Source: Escherichia coli O127:H6 str. E2348/69 (GTDB lineage: Bacteria > Pseudomonadota > Gammaproteobacteria > Enterobacterales > Enterobacteriaceae). Taken from it: 64,000 bases of DNA. Below the pieces are notes generated by a model that searched no databases, was not told the DNA's origin, and saw only the letters and a list, made by a program, of their open reading frames with translations. Shown one piece after another: positions 2,348-45,394 of the stretch; position 1 is the stretch's first letter; each line of letters begins with the position of its first letter. Made by a program: the position numbers and the translations under genes. The stretch lies in NCBI RefSeq assembly GCF_000026545.1, contig NC_011601.1. The stretch is one strand, 5' to 3'.

Positions 2348-2608
2348 TTAACAAACAGAGCAGAAAAAAAGCAAGTGAAGAGATTCTAAATAGCCTTCAA
2401 GAACAAGGCCATCCCTTTACCTAATTTTACGTATCTGAAATATATGTAACCTGAGGATAACTTTTTATTCCGTGATCAAAATCACCTCTTAAAATGCAAT
2501 TTAGCAACCGATTGCAATAAAACATTTAATCAGATCACAAAATCGCCTAAAATCGCCCGCTCGCGGCATAGCCCGCTATGCCATTTTATTTTTGAACGCA
2601 GGCCAATC

Positions 2609-3790
2609 ATGACTAACAGCAATCGCATCAAGCTCACATGGATTAGCTTTCTTTCCTACGCACTGACCGGTGCGTTGGTTATTGTCACCGGGATGGTGAT
2701 GGGAAATATCGCCGATTATTTCAATCTGCCTGTTTCCAGCATGAGTAACACCTTCACCTTCCTCAATGCCGGCATTTTAATCTCTATCTTCCTCAACGCC
2801 TGGCTGATGGAAATCGTCCCGTTGAAAACGCAGTTACGTTTTGGCTTTCTCCTGATGGTGCTGGCGGTTGCCGGTTTGATGTTCAGCCACAGCCTGGCGC
2901 TGTTCTCGGCGGCGATGTTCATTCTCGGGGTGGTCAGCGGCATCACCATGTCGATTGGTACATTCCTGGTAACACAAATGTATGAAGGACGTCAGCGCGG
3001 TTCACGCCTGTTATTTACCGACTCCTTCTTCAGTATGGCCGGGATGATTTTCCCAATGATCGCCGCGTTTCTGCTGGCACGTAGCATTGAGTGGTACTGG
3101 GTTTATGCCTGCATCGGGCTGGTGTATGTTGCTATTTTTATTCTGACCTTCGGCTGTGAATTCCCGGCACTGGGCAAACATGCGCCAAAAACAGATGCTC
3201 CGGTAGAGAAAGAAAAGTGGGGGATCGGCGTACTGTTTCTCTCTGTTGCGGCGCTGTGCTACATCCTCGGTCAGTTAGGTTTTATCTCCTGGGTGCCAGA
3301 ATATGCCAAAGGTCTGGGTATGAGCCTGAATGACGCTGGCACGCTGGTAAGTAACTTCTGGATGTCGTACATGGTCGGCATGTGGGCGTTCAGCTTTATT
3401 CTTCGCTTCTTTGATTTGCAGCGCATTCTGACCGTACTGGCTGGTCTGGCTGCGATTCTGATGTACGTCTTTAACACCGGAACACCGGCACATATGGCGT
3501 GGTCAATTCTCGCCCTGGGCTTCTTCTCCAGCGCGATCTATACCACCATCATCACCCTGGGTTCACAGCAGACCAAAGTACCGTCGCCAAAACTGGTTAA
3601 CTTTGTCCTGACCTGCGGGACCATCGGTACTATGTTGACCTTTGTGGTTACCGGCCCGATTGTTGAACATAGTGGTCCGCAGGCGGCGCTGCTGACGGCA
3701 AACGGTCTGTACGCTGTCGTCTTTGTGATGTGCTTCCTGTTAGGTTTCGTCAGCCGTCACCGTCAGCATAACACCCTGACCTCTCATTAA
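2609..3790 (+). CDS. tsgA: MFS-family inner-membrane transporter TsgA, 393 aa
   Basis: ORF 2609..3790 (+), 393 aa, multi-pass hydrophobic protein; divergent from ppiA and upstream of nirB as in E. coli. Confidence 0.9.
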
Positions 3791-3950
3791 TTGTTCATGC
3801 CGGGCGGCACTATCGTCGTCCGGCCTTTTCCTCTCTTACTCTGCTACGTACATCTATTTATATAAATCCGTTCAATTTGTCTGTTTTTTGCACAAACATG
3901 AAATGTCAGACAATTCCGTGACTTAAGAAAATTTATACAAATCAGCAACA

Positions 3951-3966
3951 TACCCCTTAAGGAGTA
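3951..3966 (+). promoter_or_regulatory. NarL/NarP 7-2-7 heptamer pair in the nirB promoter (about -69.5)
   Basis: Sequence TACCCCTTAAGGAGTA is an inverted heptamer pair (TACCCCT / AGGAGTA); its centre lies 28 bp upstream of the centre of the FNR box, the spacing expected for the nirB promoter. Confidence 0.7.
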
Positions 3967-3979
3967 TATAAAGGTGAAT

Positions 3980-3993
3980 TTGATTTACATCAA
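3980..3993 (+). promoter_or_regulatory. FNR binding site (TTGAT-N4-ATCAA) of the nirB promoter, about -41.5
   Basis: Perfect TTGATttacATCAA at 3980-3993; a TAAGGT -10-like hexamer about 28 bp downstream; nirB ATG at 4052. Confidence 0.85.
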
Positions 3994-4051
3994 TAAGCGG
4001 GGTTGCTGAATCGTTAAGGTAGGCGGTAATAGAAAAGAAATCGAGGCAAAA

Positions 4052-6595
4052 ATGAGCAAAGTCAGACTCGCAATTATCGGTAACGGTATGGTCGGCCATC
4101 GCTTTATCGAAGATCTTCTTGATAAATCTGATGCGGCCAACTTTGATATTACCGTTTTCTGTGAAGAACCGCGCATCGCTTATGACCGCGTACACCTCTC
4201 GTCTTACTTCTCTCACCACACCGCCGAAGAGCTGTCGCTGGTGCGCGAAGGCTTCTACGAGAAACACGGCATCAAAGTTCTGGTCGGCGAACGCGCTATC
4301 ACCATCAACCGTCAGGAGAAGGTGATTCACTCCAGCGCCGGACGTACCGTTTTTTATGACAAGCTGATCATGGCGACCGGTTCCTACCCGTGGATCCCGC
4401 CAATTAAAGGTTCTGATACTCAGGACTGCTTTGTCTATCGCACCATTGAAGACCTCAACGCCATTGAATCCTGCGCTCGTCGCAGCAAGCGCGGTGCCGT
4501 TGTTGGTGGCGGCCTGTTAGGTCTGGAAGCTGCTGGCGCGCTGAAAAACTTAGGCATTGAAACCCACGTTATCGAATTTGCCCCTATGCTGATGGCGGAA
4601 CAGCTTGATCAGATGGGCGGCGAGCAGCTGCGTCGCAAAATCGAAAGTATGGGCGTGCGCGTTCACACCAGCAAAAACACTCTTGAGATTGTGCAGGAAG
4701 GTGTTGAAGCGCGTAAAACCATGCGTTTTGCCGACGGCAGCGAACTGGAAGTCGACTTTATCGTCTTCTCTACCGGTATCCGTCCGCGCGATAAGCTGGC
4801 AACCCAGTGTGGTCTGGACGTTGCTCCGCGTGGGGGTATCGTCATAAATGATTCCTGCCAGACTTCCGATCCGGATATCTACGCCATCGGTGAATGCGCA
4901 AGCTGGAACAACCGTGTATTTGGTCTGGTAGCACCAGGCTACAAAATGGCGCAGGTCGCCGTTGACCATATTCTTGGTAGCGAAAACGCCTTTGAAGGTG
5001 CAGACCTTAGCGCCAAGCTGAAACTGCTGGGCGTAGACGTAGGCGGTATTGGTGATGCGCACGGTCGCACGCCTGGCGCACGTAGCTACGTTTACCTCGA
5101 CGAAAGCAAAGAGATCTACAAACGCCTGATTGTCAGCGAAGACAACAAGACGCTGCTCGGTGCGGTACTGGTGGGCGATACCAGCGACTACGGCAACCTG
5201 CTGCAACTGGTGCTGAACGCTATCGAACTGCCGGAAAACCCGGATTCTCTGATTCTGCCAGCGCACTCGGGTAGCGGTAAGCCGTCTATCGGTGTTGATA
5301 AACTGCCGGACAGTGCGCAAATCTGCTCCTGCTTCGACGTCACCAAAGGCGATCTGATTGCTGCTATCAACAAAGGCTGCCACACCGTTGCGGCGCTGAA
5401 AGCCGAAACCAAAGCGGGTACTGGCTGCGGTGGCTGTATCCCGCTGGTCACTCAGGTACTGAACGCGGAACTGGCGAAACAGGGCATCGAAGTTAACAAC
5501 AACCTGTGCGAACACTTTGCTTATTCGCGTCAGGAACTGTTCCATTTGATCCGCGTTGAAGGCATTAAAACCTTCGAAGAACTGCTGGCGAAACACGGCA
5601 AAGGTTACGGTTGTGAAGTTTGTAAACCGACCGTCGGTTCGCTGCTGGCCTCCTGCTGGAACGAATACATTCTGAAGCCGGAACATACTCCGCTGCAGGA
5701 TTCTAACGACAACTTCCTCGCGAACATCCAGAAAGACGGCACCTACTCGGTGATCCCGCGTTCTCCGGGCGGTGAAATCACCCCGGAAGGGCTGATGGCA
5801 GTGGGTCGTATCGCGCGTGAATTTAATCTCTACACCAAAATCACCGGCTCTCAGCGCCTGGCGATGTTTGGCGCACAGAAAGACGATCTGCCAGAGATCT
5901 GGCGTCAACTGATTGAAGCCGGCTTCGAAACCGGTCATGCCTATGCGAAAGCACTGCGTATGGCGAAAACCTGCGTGGGTAGCACCTGGTGCCGCTATGG
6001 CGTTGGCGACAGCGTCGGCCTCGGCGTGGAACTGGAAAATCGCTACAAAGGCATCCGTACGCCGCACAAAATGAAGTTCGGTGTCTCCGGCTGTACCCGT
6101 GAATGTTCAGAAGCTCAGGGTAAAGACGTGGGTATTATCGCCACTGAAAAAGGCTGGAACCTGTATGTTTGCGGTAACGGCGGCATGAAACCGCGTCATG
6201 CGGATCTGCTGGCAGCGGATATCGATCGCGAAACGCTGATTAAATATCTTGACCGCTTCATGATGTTCTACATCCGTACTGCCGACAAACTGACGCGTAC
6301 CGCGCCGTGGTTAGAAAACCTCGAAGGTGGCATCGATTACCTGAAAGCGGTGATCATTGACGACAAACTGGGGCTGAACGCACATCTGGAAGAAGAGATG
6401 GCGCGCCTGCGTGAAGCGGTAGTATGTGAGTGGACTGAGACGGTCAATACACCGTCCGCGCAGACTCGCTTCAAACACTTCATCAACAGCGACAAGCGTG
6501 ACCCGAACGTGCAGATGGTGCCAGAGCGCGAACAGCACCGTCCGGCAACGCCGTATGAACGTATCCCGGTAACTCTGGTGGAGGACAACGCATGA
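4052..6595 (+). CDS. nirB: NADH-dependent nitrite reductase large subunit NirB, 847 aa
   Basis: ORF 4052..6595 (+), 847 aa; N-terminal FAD/NAD Rossmann motif (LAIIGNGMVGHRF), siroheme/Fe-S Cys clusters near the C-terminus; stop overlaps the nirD start. Confidence 0.96.
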   Translation: MSKVRLAIIGNGMVGHRFIEDLLDKSDAANFDITVFCEEPRIAYDRVHLSSYFSHHTAEELSLVREGFYEKHGIKVLVGERAITINRQEKVIHSSAGRTVFYDKLIMATGSYPWIPPIKGSDTQDCFVYRTIEDLNAIESCARRSKRGAVVGGGLLGLEAAGALKNLGIETHVIEFAPMLMAEQLDQMGGEQLRRKIESMGVRVHTSKNTLEIVQEGVEARKTMRFADGSELEVDFIVFSTGIRPRDKLATQCGLDVAPRGGIVINDSCQTSDPDIYAIGECASWNNRVFGLVAPGYKMAQVAVDHILGSENAFEGADLSAKLKLLGVDVGGIGDAHGRTPGARSYVYLDESKEIYKRLIVSEDNKTLLGAVLVGDTSDYGNLLQLVLNAIELPENPDSLILPAHSGSGKPSIGVDKLPDSAQICSCFDVTKGDLIAAINKGCHTVAALKAETKAGTGCGGCIPLVTQVLNAELAKQGIEVNNNLCEHFAYSRQELFHLIRVEGIKTFEELLAKHGKGYGCEVCKPTVGSLLASCWNEYILKPEHTPLQDSNDNFLANIQKDGTYSVIPRSPGGEITPEGLMAVGRIAREFNLYTKITGSQRLAMFGAQKDDLPEIWRQLIEAGFETGHAYAKALRMAKTCVGSTWCRYGVGDSVGLGVELENRYKGIRTPHKMKFGVSGCTRECSEAQGKDVGIIATEKGWNLYVCGNGGMKPRHADLLAADIDRETLIKYLDRFMMFYIRTADKLTRTAPWLENLEGGIDYLKAVIIDDKLGLNAHLEEEMARLREAVVCEWTETVNTPSAQTRFKHFINSDKRDPNVQMVPEREQHRPATPYERIPVTLVEDNA

Positions 6596-6918
6596 GCCAG
6601 TGGAAAGACATCTGCAAAATCGATGACATCCTGCCTGAAACCGGCGTCTGCGCGCTGTTAGGTGACGAACAAGTAGCAATTTTCCGCCCGTATCACAGCG
6701 ATCAGGTGTTTGCGATCAGCAACATCGACCCGTTCTTCGAGTCCAGCGTGCTGTCACGCGGGTTGATTGCGGAACACCAGGGCGAGCTGTGGGTCGCCAG
6801 CCCGCTGAAAAAGCAGCGTTTTCGCTTAAGCGACGGCTTGTGCATGGAAGACGAACAGTTTTCCGTCAAGCATTACGACGCGCGAGTGAAAGACGGCGTG
6901 GTACAGCTGCGCGGTTAA
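6592..6918 (+). CDS. nirD: Nitrite reductase small subunit NirD, 108 aa
   Basis: ORF 6592..6918 (+), 108 aa (MSQWKDICKIDDILPETGVCALLGDEQVAIFRP...); ATGA start/stop overlap with nirB. Confidence 0.95.
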   Translation: MSQWKDICKIDDILPETGVCALLGDEQVAIFRPYHSDQVFAISNIDPFFESSVLSRGLIAEHQGELWVASPLKKQRFRLSDGLCMEDEQFSVKHYDARVKDGVVQLRG

Positions 6919-6927
6919 TATTTTAAC

Positions 6928-6953
6928 GGGAGGCGCAATGCCTCCCCTTTTTG
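6928..6953 (+). terminator. Hairpin plus T-tract immediately after nirD (intra-operon terminator/attenuator)
   Basis: gggaggc-gcaat-gcctccc (7-bp GC-rich stem) followed by cttttt, 10 bp after the nirD stop. Confidence 0.6.
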
Positions 6954-7043
6954 CATGGTCCTGTAATAACCTTCGGCATATTGCAGGACATTTTTTAAAC
7001 TTTTTGTTTTATTTTTTGTTTTTATTTTTTAAAGGATAATCAA

Positions 7044-7850
7044 ATGTTTACAGACACTATTACTAAGTGTGCGGCTAACGCTGCGCGCATTGCACGCCTG
7101 TCGGCAAATAACCCGCTCGGCTTTTGGGTCAGCTCCGCGATGGCGGGCGCGTATGTGGGTCTTGGGATCATCCTGATTTTCACGCTCGGTAATTTGCTCG
7201 ACCCGTCCGTACGTCCTCTGGTGATGGGCGCGACCTTTGGTATCGCCTTAACGCTGGTCATTATTGCTGGTTCTGAATTGTTCACCGGACACACCATGTT
7301 CCTCACCTTTGGGGTGAAAGCGGGCACCATCAGCCACGGGCAAATGTGGGCAATCCTGCCGCAAACCTGGCTGGGTAACCTGGTCGGTTCCGTCTTCGTT
7401 GCCATGCTTTATAGCTGGGGCGGCGGTAGCCTGCTGCCGGTCGATACCAGCATCGTTCACTCCGTTGCGCTGGCTAAAACCACTGCACCGGCAATGGTAC
7501 TGTTCTTCAAAGGTGCATTGTGTAACTGGCTGGTTTGTCTGGCTATCTGGATGGCGCTGCGCACTGAAGGGGCGGCGAAATTTATCGCTATCTGGTGGTG
7601 TTTGCTGGCATTTATCGCGTCCGGCTACGAGCACTCCATCGCTAACATGACGCTGTTCGCACTCTCCTGGTTCGGCAACCACAGCGAAGCCTACACGCTG
7701 GCGGGCATTGGTCATAACCTGCTGTGGGTGACGCTGGGTAATACTTTATCGGGTGCCGTATTCATGGGATTGGGTTATTGGTATGCTACGCCGAAAGCGA
7801 ATCGTCCGGTTGCGGACAAATTTAATCAAACTGAAACGGCTGCCGGTTAA
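7044..7850 (+). CDS. nirC: Nitrite transporter NirC (formate/nitrite transporter family), 268 aa
   Basis: ORF 7044..7850 (+), 268 aa, FNT-family membrane protein (MFTDTITKCAANAARIARLSANNPLGFW...). Confidence 0.95.
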   Translation: MFTDTITKCAANAARIARLSANNPLGFWVSSAMAGAYVGLGIILIFTLGNLLDPSVRPLVMGATFGIALTLVIIAGSELFTGHTMFLTFGVKAGTISHGQMWAILPQTWLGNLVGSVFVAMLYSWGGGSLLPVDTSIVHSVALAKTTAPAMVLFFKGALCNWLVCLAIWMALRTEGAAKFIAIWWCLLAFIASGYEHSIANMTLFALSWFGNHSEAYTLAGIGHNLLWVTLGNTLSGAVFMGLGYWYATPKANRPVADKFNQTETAAG

Positions 7851-7868
7851 TTACTAAGGGGTTTTTAC

Positions 7869-9242
7869 GTGGATCATTTGCCTATATTTTGCCAATTACG
7901 CGATCGCGACTGTCTGATTGTCGGCGGTGGTGATGTCGCGGAACGCAAAGCAAGGTTGCTGTTAGACGCAGGCGCTCGCTTAACGGTGAATGCATTAGCG
8001 TTTATTCCACAGTTCACCGCATGGGCAGATGCAGGCATGTTAACCCTCGTCGAAGGGCCATTTGATGAAAGCCTTCTCGACACCTGCTGGCTGGCGATTG
8101 CAGCGACAGATGATGACGCGCTTAACCAGCGCGTCAGCGAAGCCGCTGAAGCTCGTCGCATCTTCTGTAACGTGGTCGATGCGCCGAAAGCCGCCAGCTT
8201 TATTATGCCGTCGATTATTGACCGCTCGCCGCTCATGGTAGCGGTCTCCTCTGGCGGCACCTCTCCGGTTCTGGCGCGCCTGTTGCGCGAAAAACTCGAA
8301 TCACTGCTGCCGTTACATCTGGGCCAGGTAGCGAAATACGCCGGGCAATTACGCGGGCGAGTGAAACAACAGTTCGCCACGATGGGTGAGCGTCGCCGTT
8401 TCTGGGAGAAATTATTCGTTAACGACCGCCTGGCGCAGTCGCTGGCCAACAACGATCAGAAAGCCATTACTGAAACCACCGAACAGTTAATCAACGAACC
8501 GCTCGACCATCGCGGTGAAGTGGTGCTGGTTGGTGCAGGTCCGGGCGATGCCGGGCTGCTGACACTGAAAGGTCTGCAACAAATTCAGCAGGCAGATGTG
8601 GTGGTCTACGACCGTCTGGTTTCTGACGATATTATGAATCTGGTACGCCGCGATGCTGATCGCGTTTTCGTCGGCAAACGCGCGGGATACCACTGCGTAC
8701 CGCAGGAAGAGATTAACCAGATCCTGCTGCGGGAAGCGCAAAAAGGTAAACGCGTGGTGCGTCTGAAAGGCGGCGATCCGTTTATTTTCGGGCGTGGCGG
8801 AGAAGAGCTGGAAACACTGTGCAACGCGGGTATTCCATTCTCGGTGGTTCCGGGTATTACCGCAGCTTCTGGTTGCTCTGCCTATTCGGGTATTCCGCTC
8901 ACGCATCGCGATTATGCCCAGAGCGTACGCTTAATTACTGGACACTTAAAAACCGGTGGCGAGCTGGACTGGGAAAACCTGGCGGCAGAAAAACAGACGC
9001 TGGTGTTTTATATGGGGCTGAATCAGGCTGCAACTATTCAGCAAAAGCTGATTGAATACGGTATGCCTGGTGAAATGCCGGTGGCAATTGTCGAAAACGG
9101 AACGGCAGTCACGCAGCGCGTGATTGACGGTACGCTCACGCAGCTGGGCGAACTGGCGCAGCAAATGAACAGTCCATCGCTAATTATTATTGGTCGGGTT
9201 GTTGGCCTGCGCGATAAATTGAACTGGTTCTCTAACCATTAA
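7869..9242 (+). CDS. cysG: Siroheme synthase CysG (uroporphyrinogen-III methyltransferase / precorrin-2 dehydrogenase / ferrochelatase), 457 aa, GTG start
   Basis: ORF 7869..9242 (+), 457 aa; N-terminal NAD-binding [18 protein letters not shown]-terminal methyltransferase domain ([18 protein letters not shown]). Confidence 0.95.
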
Positions 9243-9493: not shown

Positions 9494-9661
9494 ATGAACA
9501 AATTTATTAAAGTTGCACTGGTAGGCGCAGTACTGGCTACGTTAACTGCATGTACTGGTCATATTGAAAACCGTGATAAGAACTGCTCTTACGACTACCT
9601 GCTGCACCCGGCAATTTCTATTTCTAAAATCATTGGCAGTTGCGGTCCGACTGCACAGTAA
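9494..9661 (+). CDS. yhfL: Small lipoprotein YhfL, 55 aa
   Basis: ATG at 9494; translation MNKFIKVALVGAVLATLTACTGHIENRDKNCSYDYLLHPAISISKIIGSCGPTAQ with a lipobox (LTAC); below the ORF-track size cutoff. Confidence 0.8.
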   Translation: MNKFIKVALVGAVLATLTACTGHIENRDKNCSYDYLLHPAISISKIIGSCGPTAQ

Positions 9662-9702
9662 GTCTCTGACAGAAATCGGCTAACGCCGGTTTAATTGCCT
9701 GA

Positions 9703-9740
9703 CGCCCTCGGAGTTATCCGAGGGCGTATTTATTTCTGCA
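9703..9740 (+). terminator. Rho-independent terminator after yhfL (at the yhfL/yhfS convergent junction)
   Basis: acgccctcgg-agttat-ccgagggcgt (10-bp stem) followed by atttatttct. Confidence 0.7.
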
Positions 9741-9767
9741 TTCTTTTCGAAAACATCATGCACAAGA

Positions 9768-10853
9768 TTAAATACTGGCAATACTCTCACGCAAAATCCG
9801 CAGCACCGTCTCTTCACCGCTGCGATTCGGGTTAATGCGAATCGCGCAATGTTCGAGTTGTGGATTCGCCTGACGAAACGTTCCGGAAAGTCGATAAAAG
9901 AGCGGCGGGATTTCATATTTCGACTCTGCACCAACCGGGTAAGGCAAGGCACCGAGTTTCTGCGCCTCTTCCAGCACTCTGGCGGCAATCGGCTGATGAA
10001 ACTCCACAATCAATACCTTCGACTGTGCATTGGCAATGACGGCGCTTTTCACTTCAGACACCGCGCCGCCGTTAAGCAAAGCCAGCAACCGTTCAGATAC
10101 TCCCGCCTGCACCGCATGCATCACCGGCGCAAACACCAGCCCACGCAAGACTTCCAGCGCCTGTGCACCCTGAATCTGGCTGCCGCCGGAATAGAGCGTG
10201 GCGCGAATCCGGCTAATAACATCGGCATCGCCTACCACCACACCAACGCCCTCTGGCCCAAACAGCTTGAAGCAGGAGAATGTCGACACATTCGCCCCGC
10301 ATTCGCAGCCGATTCGCGCTACCTTCATCACCGCATAGTTGTCATCGGTTAACGCTGGAACACCTGCCGCGCGCAACGTTGCCAGCACGTCTGCCAGCAC
10401 ATAGCGGTCCTGCGGCTGCTGGCGCGTATGCTGCACCAGCGCGGCATCAGGTTGTTGCTCGTCAACAACCTGCTTCAGTGCCGACAGATCATTGAAATCA
10501 GCCGTAATGAGCGTTAGCCCCATCTGCTCAATAATAACCCGTGTCGTCGGGTAAACAGGCGCGTCATGCACCAGAAGACGCTGCCCCGATTTGAGCAAAG
10601 CCGCCAGTGCCGCACGGATCGCGCCAGTACCCGCGCCCTGTACCAGCGCCGCGGCCTGTGCGTGAAACGCGTCAGCCAGCACCTGTTCCACACGCTGGGT
10701 AATGCGGGGCTGATTTAGCCCCGGCGTTAAGCCCAAATCACCGCAGGTAAGAAACTCGCAGCCAGGAAAATGACGGCAAATCGTGTCCACCAGCGCAAAC
10801 TGCTTTTGCTGCGCCTCAATAAGCGTCAGGCTTTGCAGAGGAAACGTCTTCAT
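9768..10853 (-). CDS. yhfS: YhfS, putative PLP-dependent enzyme of unknown function, 361 aa
   Basis: ORF 9768..10853 (-), 361 aa; recognised as E. coli YhfS by sequence and by synteny with yhfT..yhfZ; function not established. Confidence 0.85.
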   Translation of the reverse strand: MKTFPLQSLTLIEAQQKQFALVDTICRHFPGCEFLTCGDLGLTPGLNQPRITQRVEQVLADAFHAQAAALVQGAGTGAIRAALAALLKSGQRLLVHDAPVYPTTRVIIEQMGLTLITADFNDLSALKQVVDEQQPDAALVQHTRQQPQDRYVLADVLATLRAAGVPALTDDNYAVMKVARIGCECGANVSTFSCFKLFGPEGVGVVVGDADVISRIRATLYSGGSQIQGAQALEVLRGLVFAPVMHAVQAGVSERLLALLNGGAVSEVKSAVIANAQSKVLIVEFHQPIAARVLEEAQKLGALPYPVGAESKYEIPPLFYRLSGTFRQANPQLEHCAIRINPNRSGEETVLRILRESIASI

Positions 10854-45380: not shown

Positions 45381-45394
45381 TTGAGCCATATCAA
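45381..45394 (+). promoter_or_regulatory. FNR-like site upstream of feoA (TTGAG-N4-ATCAA)
   Basis: ttgagccatatcaa, one mismatch from the TTGAT-N4-ATCAA consensus; feoABC is known to be FNR-activated. Confidence 0.45.

Follow-up and report, generated by a model that had tools for sequence, protein, structure and literature searches.

The element located between tsgA and nirB in the EPEC O127:H6 strain E2348/69 is almost certainly pnir, the nirB operon promoter of E. coli that has been characterized in K-12. In the window, i.e., the whole 64 kb stretch of DNA that was analyzed, we found its FNR and NarL/NarP sites at the spacing of pnir; identity to K-12, conservation in other species, the downstream operon and intact genes for FNR, NarX and NarL were likewise observed directly. 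The sequence-only reading of this DNA had proposed that the operon is wired for anaerobic, nitrate/nitrite-responsive expression in this strain. The K-12 identity, the operon context, the published motif positions and the intact fnr, narX and narL genes argue for this proposal, and the EPEC strain, with intact fnr and narXL, is probably still wired in the standard way for cytoplasmic nitrite reduction that is anaerobic and induced by nitrate or nitrite. The promoter is already known. We agree with the earlier view that it represents expected biology and an internal control, and its value lies mostly in quality control, as it confirms the assignment of the window to the tsgA / nirBDC-cysG region of E. 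coli.

Activator sites and core promoter

The placement of pnir is based on ORFs, NCBIfam matches and RefSeq annotation, which put tsgA upstream and nirB-nirD-nirC-cysG directly downstream of it (Table 1). The stop codon of tsgA, a gene whose identity is backed by RefSeq annotation and NCBIfam, lies at position 3790, and a terminator-like hairpin sets tsgA apart from the nirB promoter. An assignment of the FNR box to tsgA was rejected, as tsgA is located upstream on the same strand and is closed by this hairpin. A minus-strand ORF at 3923-4330 (135 aa, GTG start) was also rejected as a divergent gene, since it runs mostly antisense within nirB and is absent from the RefSeq annotation. Over 25 kb, the window shows 100% identity to E2348/69. 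The pnir region is present in 5425 of 5426 complete E. coli genomes. According to the annotation, E2348/69 has intact copies of fnr, narX and narL; a narP gene was detected in 5423 of the 5426 E. coli genomes.

Table 1. Features of the tsgA-nirB region and the nirB operon in E2348/69 (window coordinates; promoter positions relative to the predicted transcription start).
Feature	Position	Strand	Sequence	Remarks
Terminator-like hairpin and T-run	3799..3834	+	CTTTTCCTCT (after the stem)	10-pair stem with 8 G-C pairs
Conserved upstream block	3900..3932	+		about -128 to -96; mean information 1.21 bits vs 0.40-0.43 in flanks (52 species)
Probable IHF I core	3940..3952	+	AATCAGCAACATA	WATCAR-N4-TTR with 1 mismatch; from -88; shares 2 bp with NarL site
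NarL/NarP 7-2-7 site	3951..3966	+	TACCCCT-TA-AGGAGTA = TACCCCTTAAGGAGTA	centre 3958.5 (-69.5)
FNR site	3980..3993	+	TTGAT-TTAC-ATCAA = TTGATTTACATCAA	perfect consensus match; centre 3986.5 (-41.5)
Cra/FruR-like half-site	4005..4018	+	GCTGAATCGTTAAG	overlaps -10 region; 16-bp form 4004-4019, centre -16.5
-10 hexamer	4015..4020	+	TAAGGT	-13 to -8; 3/6 to TATAAT (T1, A2, T6 kept)
Predicted transcription start	4028	+	A	placed by setting FNR at -41.5 and by identity to K-12
24-nt leader	4028..4051	+		Shine-Dalgarno GAGG 4043-4046, five nt before ATG
Operon nirB-nirD-nirC-cysG	4052..9242	+		ORFs; NCBIfam scores far above cut-offs; RefSeq annotation of identical E2348/69 locus
nirB	4052-6595	+		ATG at 4052
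nirD	6592-6918	+		
nirC	7044-7850	+		
cysG	7869-9242	+		

The perfect FNR box that had been proposed at 3980-3993 was recovered exact to the base. It is the sole match to TTGATNNNNATCAA in the 64 kb window, where 0.08 matches were expected by chance and at least one occurred in 8 of 100 shuffles. The same sequence, TTGATTTACATCAA, serves as FNR consensus operator in a synthetic-biology paper. With the -41.5 position taken over from the K-12 nirB promoter (PMC3688515), the box is predicted to occupy a class II activator position over the missing -35 element. The identical site in K-12 has been listed with a PWM score of 17.06, an FNR ChIP peak was located some 15-20 bp from it, and the nirB RNA level in an fnr mutant was 0.03 of that of the wild type (PMC3688515).

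The inverted heptamer pair at 3951-3966 was also confirmed to the base. Two TACYYMT heptamers in inverted orientation with 2 bp between them form a perfect 7-2-7 site, which is the only match to TACYYMTNNAKRRGTA in the 64 kb window (0.00 expected, never found in the shuffles). The NarL and FNR sites, both located directly upstream of nirB, are separated by 13 bp, and their centres at 3958.5 and 3986.5 lie 28 bp apart. This equals the difference between -69.5 and -41.5, the positions for which the spacing had been said to be suited. In pnir of K-12, NarL binds at -69.5 and IHF at -88 (PMC10853779), and induction of a nirB::lacZ fusion by nitrite and nitrate was dependent on NarXL/NarQP (PMC1802743).

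The -10 hexamer TAAGGT that had been noticed is present at 4015-4020, and 49 of 52 species retain it. A match to the -35 consensus is absent, with AATAAG located 17 bp upstream of TAAGGT. A simple sigma-70 scan of 3700-4150 yielded no consensus sigma-70 promoter, which is expected for an activator-dependent promoter without a -35 element. The start at 4028 was carried over from K-12 on the basis of the sequence identity; a literature search (promoter sequences, pnir7150, nirB start) returned no directly stated nirB start coordinate. K-12 shows an anaerobic-specific sigma-70 ChIP peak at nirB (PMC3688515), which after coordinate conversion corresponds to about position 4039 of the window, approximately 11 bp downstream of the predicted +1. 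The conversion was validated with the ppiA/tsgA site, which fell at 2472 as predicted.

In the leader, 11 of the 24 columns are invariant among 52 species. An Rfam search of 3700-4400 with E-values up to 1 gave no match and thus no known leader RNA family. In K-12 the leader is presumably overlapped by a Fis site (+23). The -10 region is overlapped by the conserved Cra-like sequence GCTGAATCG. The half-site GCTGAATCGTTAAG has one mismatch to RSTGAAWCSNTHHW, a pattern too common to be evidence by itself, with 24 matches in the window vs 12.8 expected; 48 of 52 species retain GCTGAATCGT. Tyson, Busby and Cole reportedly described in 1997 that nirB is regulated by Cra. Since the conservation between -20 and the ATG (4008-4051) goes beyond the needs of the -10 hexamer and the Shine-Dalgarno sequence, this segment could hold an undescribed control element, either in the promoter-proximal DNA or in the 24-nt leader (e.g., a target of an sRNA or protein). 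We consider this idea tentative and rather doubtful; such an element would come on top of the Cra-like site and the presumed K-12 Fis site.

Putative IHF/Fis region and predicted mode of activation

The sequence-only reading had described 3940-4052 as a complete promoter architecture. The sites are indeed present, but "complete" is too strong, because the regulatory region extends further upstream, with published IHF/Fis sites located upstream of or overlapping this segment, and because it contains a Cra-like site. Within the intergenic region, AATCAGCAACATA was the sole match in a scan with the IHF consensus, but this pattern occurs frequently in the window as a whole, and the match is not evidence alone. 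Six of the seven columns of AAATCAG (3939-3945) are invariant among 52 species, as is the AATCAG core, which is located at the published position -88. For K-12, Browning et al. 2000-2008 reportedly placed further IHF and Fis sites (IHF II around -115, Fis III around -97) in the region that corresponds to the conserved block at 3900-3932.

The transcription start, the binding of the proteins and the anti-repression mechanism are taken from the K-12 literature, according to which pnir of E2348/69 would function as follows. In the absence of oxygen, an FNR dimer would bind to TTGAT-N4-ATCAA centered 41.5 bp upstream of the start and, from this class II position, recruit RNA polymerase to a promoter with a weak -10 region (TAAGGT) and no -35 region. 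The nucleoid proteins IHF (around -88) and Fis would hold down this FNR-dependent activation. When nitrate or nitrite is available, phosphorylated NarL or NarP would occupy the 7-2-7 site at -69.5 and displace IHF, as this site overlaps the IHF core, so that repression would be lifted. In K-12, FNR-dependent activity is reported to become independent of NarL in an ihf fis background or when the upstream sites are deleted.

By the literature, NarL/NarP at -69.5 thus acts as an anti-repressor displacing IHF rather than as a conventional co-activator. An upstream co-activator touching RNA polymerase (alpha-CTD) together with FNR, instead of IHF/Fis displacement, appears unlikely. Direct recruitment of RNA polymerase by NarL has indeed been described for yeaR (-43.5) and ogt (-44.5 and -77.5) (PMC10853779), and the fixed 13-bp gap, found in all 69 nirB-linked matches listed (see below), would also suit a protein contact on one face of the helix. 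However, the conserved AATCAG core shares 2 bp with the NarL site, which fits competition, and footprinting and mutational work summarized in PMC10853779 showed, in agreement with PMC3688515, that at pnir NarL collides with IHF at -88 and alleviates the repression by Fis.

The nrfA promoter of E. coli (pnrf) belongs to another operon, that of the periplasmic nitrite reductase. Its sites differ from those of pnir, with NarL/NarP at about -74.5, IHF at about -54 and Fis at about -15, and the two promoters are not known to have any sequence in common beyond the motifs. Like pnir, pnrf has FNR at -41.5, a NarL/NarP 7-2-7 site upstream, and suppression of FNR-dependent transcription by IHF and Fis, according to PMC5434802 and PMC3688515. 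In a different organism, the aniA promoter of Neisseria gonorrhoeae also controls a nitrite reductase, in this case a copper enzyme, is co-activated by FNR and NarQ-NarP, and has comparable targets for them whose positions nearly coincide with those in PnirB; gonococcal NarQP fails to complement E. coli at PnirB (PMC1802743).

Comparison with K-12 and other Enterobacterales

The alignment to the characterized pnir, a check that had been suggested with the initial claim, showed that the sequence from 3957 through the ATG is identical to that of K-12 MG1655. Over the 270-bp intergenic region the identity was 94.8%, with 14 substitutions, 12 of them upstream of -120, and no indels; between 3879 and 4063 only four positions differed (3883, 3905, 3949, and 3956). 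Both strains have the promoter between tsgA and nirBDC-cysG, with a 7-2-7 site, and agree in every base from -71 to the ATG, which covers the FNR box and its 13-bp distance from the NarL site as well as TAAGGT and the leader with its Shine-Dalgarno sequence. They differ in two core bases, which in E2348/69 are changed by -72 A>C, converting TACCCAT to TACCCCT, and -79 T>C. The NarL site of E2348/69 is therefore one base off the K-12 site TACCCATTAAGGAGTA, a difference absent from the sequence-only reading.

Positions 3950-4010 of the window are matched identically by 3823 of 5425 E. coli records (70%), and C at -72 is carried by five of six sampled strains. Judging from these records, C at -72 is probably the majority allele in E. 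coli, and the NarL heptamer of K-12, the strain to which all pnir work refers, is probably the minority allele. The T>C exchange at 3949 (-79), which falls within AATCAGCAACATA, is rare in E. coli: over the segment 3906-3955, which holds this C, identity to the window was limited to 31 of 5392 E. coli records. The EPEC O127:H6 lineage carries a rare base at the junction of IHF and NarL. In a set of 54 other species, C and A are equally frequent at -72 (27 each), and 12 of the 54 have C at -79.

Both exchanges, of which the one at -79 is so rare, fall within or beside the stretch where the NarL and IHF sites overlap, and there they might shift the affinity for NarL/NarP or IHF and make nitrate/nitrite induction in E2348/69 unlike that in K-12. 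We regard an altered response as quite improbable, since TACCCCT (C at 3956) still fits the heptamer consensus TACYYMT, 70% of the complete E. coli genomes and most sampled strains share the -72 region or base, -72 is evenly divided between C and A in the other species, and -79, where several of them have C, belongs to the N4 that the IHF consensus leaves unspecified.

The retention of the K-12 arrangement in E2348/69 is paralleled in other Enterobacterales. We scanned about 100,000 species genomes, allowing gaps of 3-33 bp, for loci with exact matches to both motifs. In this motif-selected sample, which gives no frequency of nirB-bearing species without the arrangement, the gap was exactly 13 bp in 69 of the 69 nirB-linked matches listed, and the FNR box was separated from the start of NirB by 57-66 nt (57-59 nt in 68 of them), with the NirB alignment beginning 58-67 nt after the end of the box (58-60 nt in 68 of them). 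The genera among the matches listed include Citrobacter, Salmonella, Enterobacter, Cedecea, Buttiauxella, Pantoea, and Pectobacterium, and the geometry of NarL site, FNR box and ATG is thus fixed across many enterobacterial genera. The mean pairwise identity among 52 species was 0.87 from -20 to the ATG, 0.83 in the nirB coding region and 0.66 in the non-contact spacers.

A joint occurrence of the FNR and NarL motifs by chance, without a regulatory role, can be called already refuted: although perfect FNR boxes did arise in some of the shuffled windows (8 of 100 with at least one copy), the 7-2-7 site never did, the motif pair coincides in place and sequence with the characterized promoter, dozens of species keep one geometry despite diverging spacers (mean pairwise identity 0.66, vs 0.87 from -20 to the ATG), and FNR occupies the identical K-12 sequence in vivo.

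Compared to pnir of E. coli, the other enterobacterial nirB promoters have the same order of NarL site, 13-bp gap, FNR box and NirB and mostly keep TAAGGT and GCTGAATCGT, but differ in the heptamer variants, the N4 bases of the FNR box and the spacers. Among 54 species, the FNR boxes TTGATTTGTATCAA and TTGATTTGCATCAA were commoner than the E. coli version TTGATTTACATCAA.

Layout of the nirB promoter

The 270-bp tsgA-nirB intergenic region showed 100% identity to E. coli E2348/69, and over the first 25 kb of the window, E2348/69 and two further records of O127:H6 were the only ones with 100% identity. The RefSeq annotation lists tsgA, nirB, nirD, nirC and cysG at this locus, all of which lie far above their NCBIfam cut-offs (e.g., NirB with 1873 bits versus 883). 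Therefore, the element at 3940-4052 represents the promoter region of nirBDC-cysG in a typical EPEC strain. This element, pnir, is already known and had been described earlier as expected biology; of 5426 complete E. coli genomes, 5425 carry it. Further downstream (window about 9500-9800), yhfL is directly followed by yhfS in E2348/69, whereas in K-12 it is followed by frlA of the fructoselysine operon (stretches L001, 11871-11978, and L002, 7616-7911, compared). A 34-bp match covering the promoter end and the start of nirB, annotated as nirB, occurs in the 86-kb E. coli plasmid record NZ_AP027533.1; three plasmid places in all match the promoter region.

Direct reading of 3700-4300 bore out every coordinate of the sequence-only reading. 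In agreement with the perfect FNR box and the inverted heptamer pair described there, the FNR consensus TTGAT-N4-ATCAA and the NarL/NarP 7-2-7 consensus TACYYMT-N2-AKRRGTA each had a single match in the 64 kb window (0.08 and 0.00 expected, respectively). Their centres, 3986.5 and 3958.5, are 28 bp apart. Positions -41.5 and -69.5 differ by exactly this amount, so the spacing is the one that had been claimed. If FNR is centred at -41.5, A4028 would be the +1, the proposed -10 element TAAGGT would extend from -13 to -8, and the leader would comprise 24 nt including a GAGG motif.

Features of the nirB promoter region
Feature	Position	Strand	Basis
Terminator-like hairpin, then T-run	3799-3824		same scan as for sigma-70 promoters
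Probable IHF core, 1 mismatch	3940-3952
NarL/NarP 7-2-7 site TACCCCTTAAGGAGTA	3951-3966	+	direct reading of 3700-4300
FNR box TTGATTTACATCAA	3980-3993	+	direct reading of 3700-4300
Cra-like match, 1 mismatch	4005-4018
TAAGGT	4015-4020	+	direct reading of 3700-4300
GAGG	4043-4046
nirB ATG	4052	+	start of 847-codon ORF

Since the hexamer 17 bp before TAAGGT is AATAAG, pnir has no -35 element. A simple consensus scan of 3700-4150 found no sigma-70 promoter, as expected for an activator-dependent promoter; the terminator-like hairpin it detected lies right after the upstream gene. The probable IHF core opens with the invariant AATCAG at window position 3940, corresponding to -88, and shares 2 bp with the NarL site. 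The Cra-like match is statistically unremarkable, yet conserved across species. The region matched no Rfam family. The architecture had been called complete, but 3940-4052 represents the promoter core and not the whole regulatory region. Further Fis sites at about -142, -97 and +23 and a second IHF site at about -115 probably belong to pnir as well, and Cra presumably acts at -16.5.

Regulation of pnir and its regulators

In K-12, nirBDC-cysG is activated by FNR from a site at -41.5 (PMC3688515). According to the supplements of that study, the identical K-12 box has a PWM score of 17.06 and FNR ChIP peaks at a distance of about 15-20 bp, the sigma-70 peak at nirB increases from 91 to 747 under anaerobic conditions, and an fnr mutant has 0.03 of the wild-type level of nirB RNA. 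The coordinates of this study, which refer to an older genome version, were converted with an offset of 1978 bp fixed by the motif itself; the conversion is valid because the ppiA/tsgA site of the paper lands exactly at the predicted window position 2472. After conversion, the K-12 sigma-70 peak falls near window position 4039, and the inferred +1 lies about 11 bp upstream of it. At pnir, NarL binds at -69.5, where it collides with IHF (at -88) and displaces it, thereby relieving repression by Fis, so that FNR can activate (PMC10853779). With the probable IHF core at -88, each of three published coordinates (-41.5, -69.5 and -88) thus has a matching feature in the sequence. Induction of nirB::lacZ by nitrite and nitrate depends on NarXL and NarQP (PMC1802743).

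Going by the K-12 work, anaerobic FNR at -41.5 would recruit RNA polymerase, its activation would be held down by IHF and Fis, and phospho-NarL or NarP at -69.5 would remove IHF and lift the repression. This points to NarL/NarP as an anti-repressor and not a simple co-activator, which refines the interpretation. Both fnr and narX-narL are intact in E2348/69. Together with the cis elements, the operon and the K-12 literature, they support the earlier claim that the operon is wired for anaerobic, nitrate/nitrite-responsive expression.

The regulators are near-universal in complete E. coli genomes (fnr 5399/5426, narXL 5421/5426, narP 5423/5426). For fnr, 27 of the 5426 genomes gave no megablast match, and some complete genomes (records H56-H58) carry IS481 or IS3 insertions within narX-narL. 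Strains with disrupted narX-narL or without fnr would retain the promoter and lack its regulators.

Allelic variation and conservation across species

Only two points are mildly non-trivial: how frequent the alleles at -72 and -79 are, and how strongly the stretch between -20 and the ATG is conserved. In an alignment of the window with six E. coli strains, K-12 MG1655 among them, the stretch from 3957 to the ATG was invariant in all seven, so that identity to the characterised K-12 promoter was confirmed there. Over 270 bp, K-12 differs from the window by 14 substitutions and no indels; 12 lie upstream of 3906 (3794-3905, upstream of -120) and two inside the element. In 1319 E. coli records, the 270-bp intergenic region was only 90-95% identical.

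At 3956 (-72), K-12 has A and the window C, giving the heptamers TACCCAT and TACCCCT, respectively, which both match TACYYMT. Because 3950-4010 is identical to the window in 3823 of 5425 E. coli records (70%) and C is present in five of the six aligned strains, the laboratory reference K-12 probably holds a minority allele of the upstream NarL heptamer. At 3949 (-79), 2 bp before the NarL site and at its junction with the probable IHF core, K-12 has T and the window C. Over 3906-3955, no more than 31 of 5392 E. coli records match the window completely, so the C allele at -79 is rare in E. coli.

One genome per species from about 100,000 species was scanned for pairs of an FNR box and a 7-2-7 site with 3-33 bp between them. 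The scan yielded at least 120 stretches, a motif-selected sample from which the frequency of species without the arrangement is not derivable. Among the matches listed, 69 had a NirB homologue immediately downstream, and the gap was exactly 13 bp in all 69; the distance from the FNR box to the NirB alignment start was 58-60 nt in 68 of them (59 in the window, 4052 minus 3993) and 67 nt in the outlier, L099. The search design imposes conservation of the motif bases, but neither the constant gap nor the nearly constant distance to the ATG. Genera among these matches include Citrobacter, Salmonella, Enterobacter, Cedecea, Buttiauxella, Kosakonia, Atlantibacter, Pantoea, Mixta and Pectobacterium.

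In 52 Enterobacterales loci from the matches listed with the ATG in register, mean pairwise identity was 0.87 from -20 to the ATG (4008-4051, including the 24-nt leader), 0.83 for the first 50 nirB codons and 0.66 for the NarL-FNR and FNR-(-21) spacers. Conservation from -20 to the ATG is thus about equal to that of the nirB coding sequence. TAAGGT was retained in 49 and GCTGAATCGT, which overlaps the -10 region, in 48 of the 52 loci, and six of the seven columns of AAATCAG (3939-3945) were invariant. Among 54 such loci, C and A were equally frequent at -72 (27 each), and at -79, 37 loci had T and 12 had C; therefore, both window variants are tolerated states.

Other FNR-type and composite sites

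The ppiA-tsgA intergenic region contains GTGATCAAAATCAC (window 2472-2485), the 'ppiA/tsgA' site of the K-12 FNR PWM and ChIP tables, which seems to resemble a CRP site no less than an FNR site. Another sequence, TTGAGCCATATCAA (window 45381-45394), departs from the FNR consensus at one position and is similar to the K-12 feoA FNR site TTGAGCCACATCAA (PMC3688515).

In a second family of composites of a 7-2-7 site and an FNR box, the gap is 14 bp; among the matches listed, this family does not lie upstream of nirB (L017, L020-L022, L028, L039, L042, L050, L060, L062, L067, L069, L087, L088, L094, L102, L111, L115, L117, L122). Its hosts are Rheinheimera, Alishewanella, Arsukibacterium and related MAGs. 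Downstream of these composites, at a distance of about 30-77 nt (9 nt in L020, which is truncated), follows a gene for a Cys-rich protein of ~125 aa with the motif KPLVY[AS]CSGCSNVAQL...DGCPL. Two more matches with a 14-bp gap among those listed, L015 and L084, precede a gene for a NapF-like ferredoxin.
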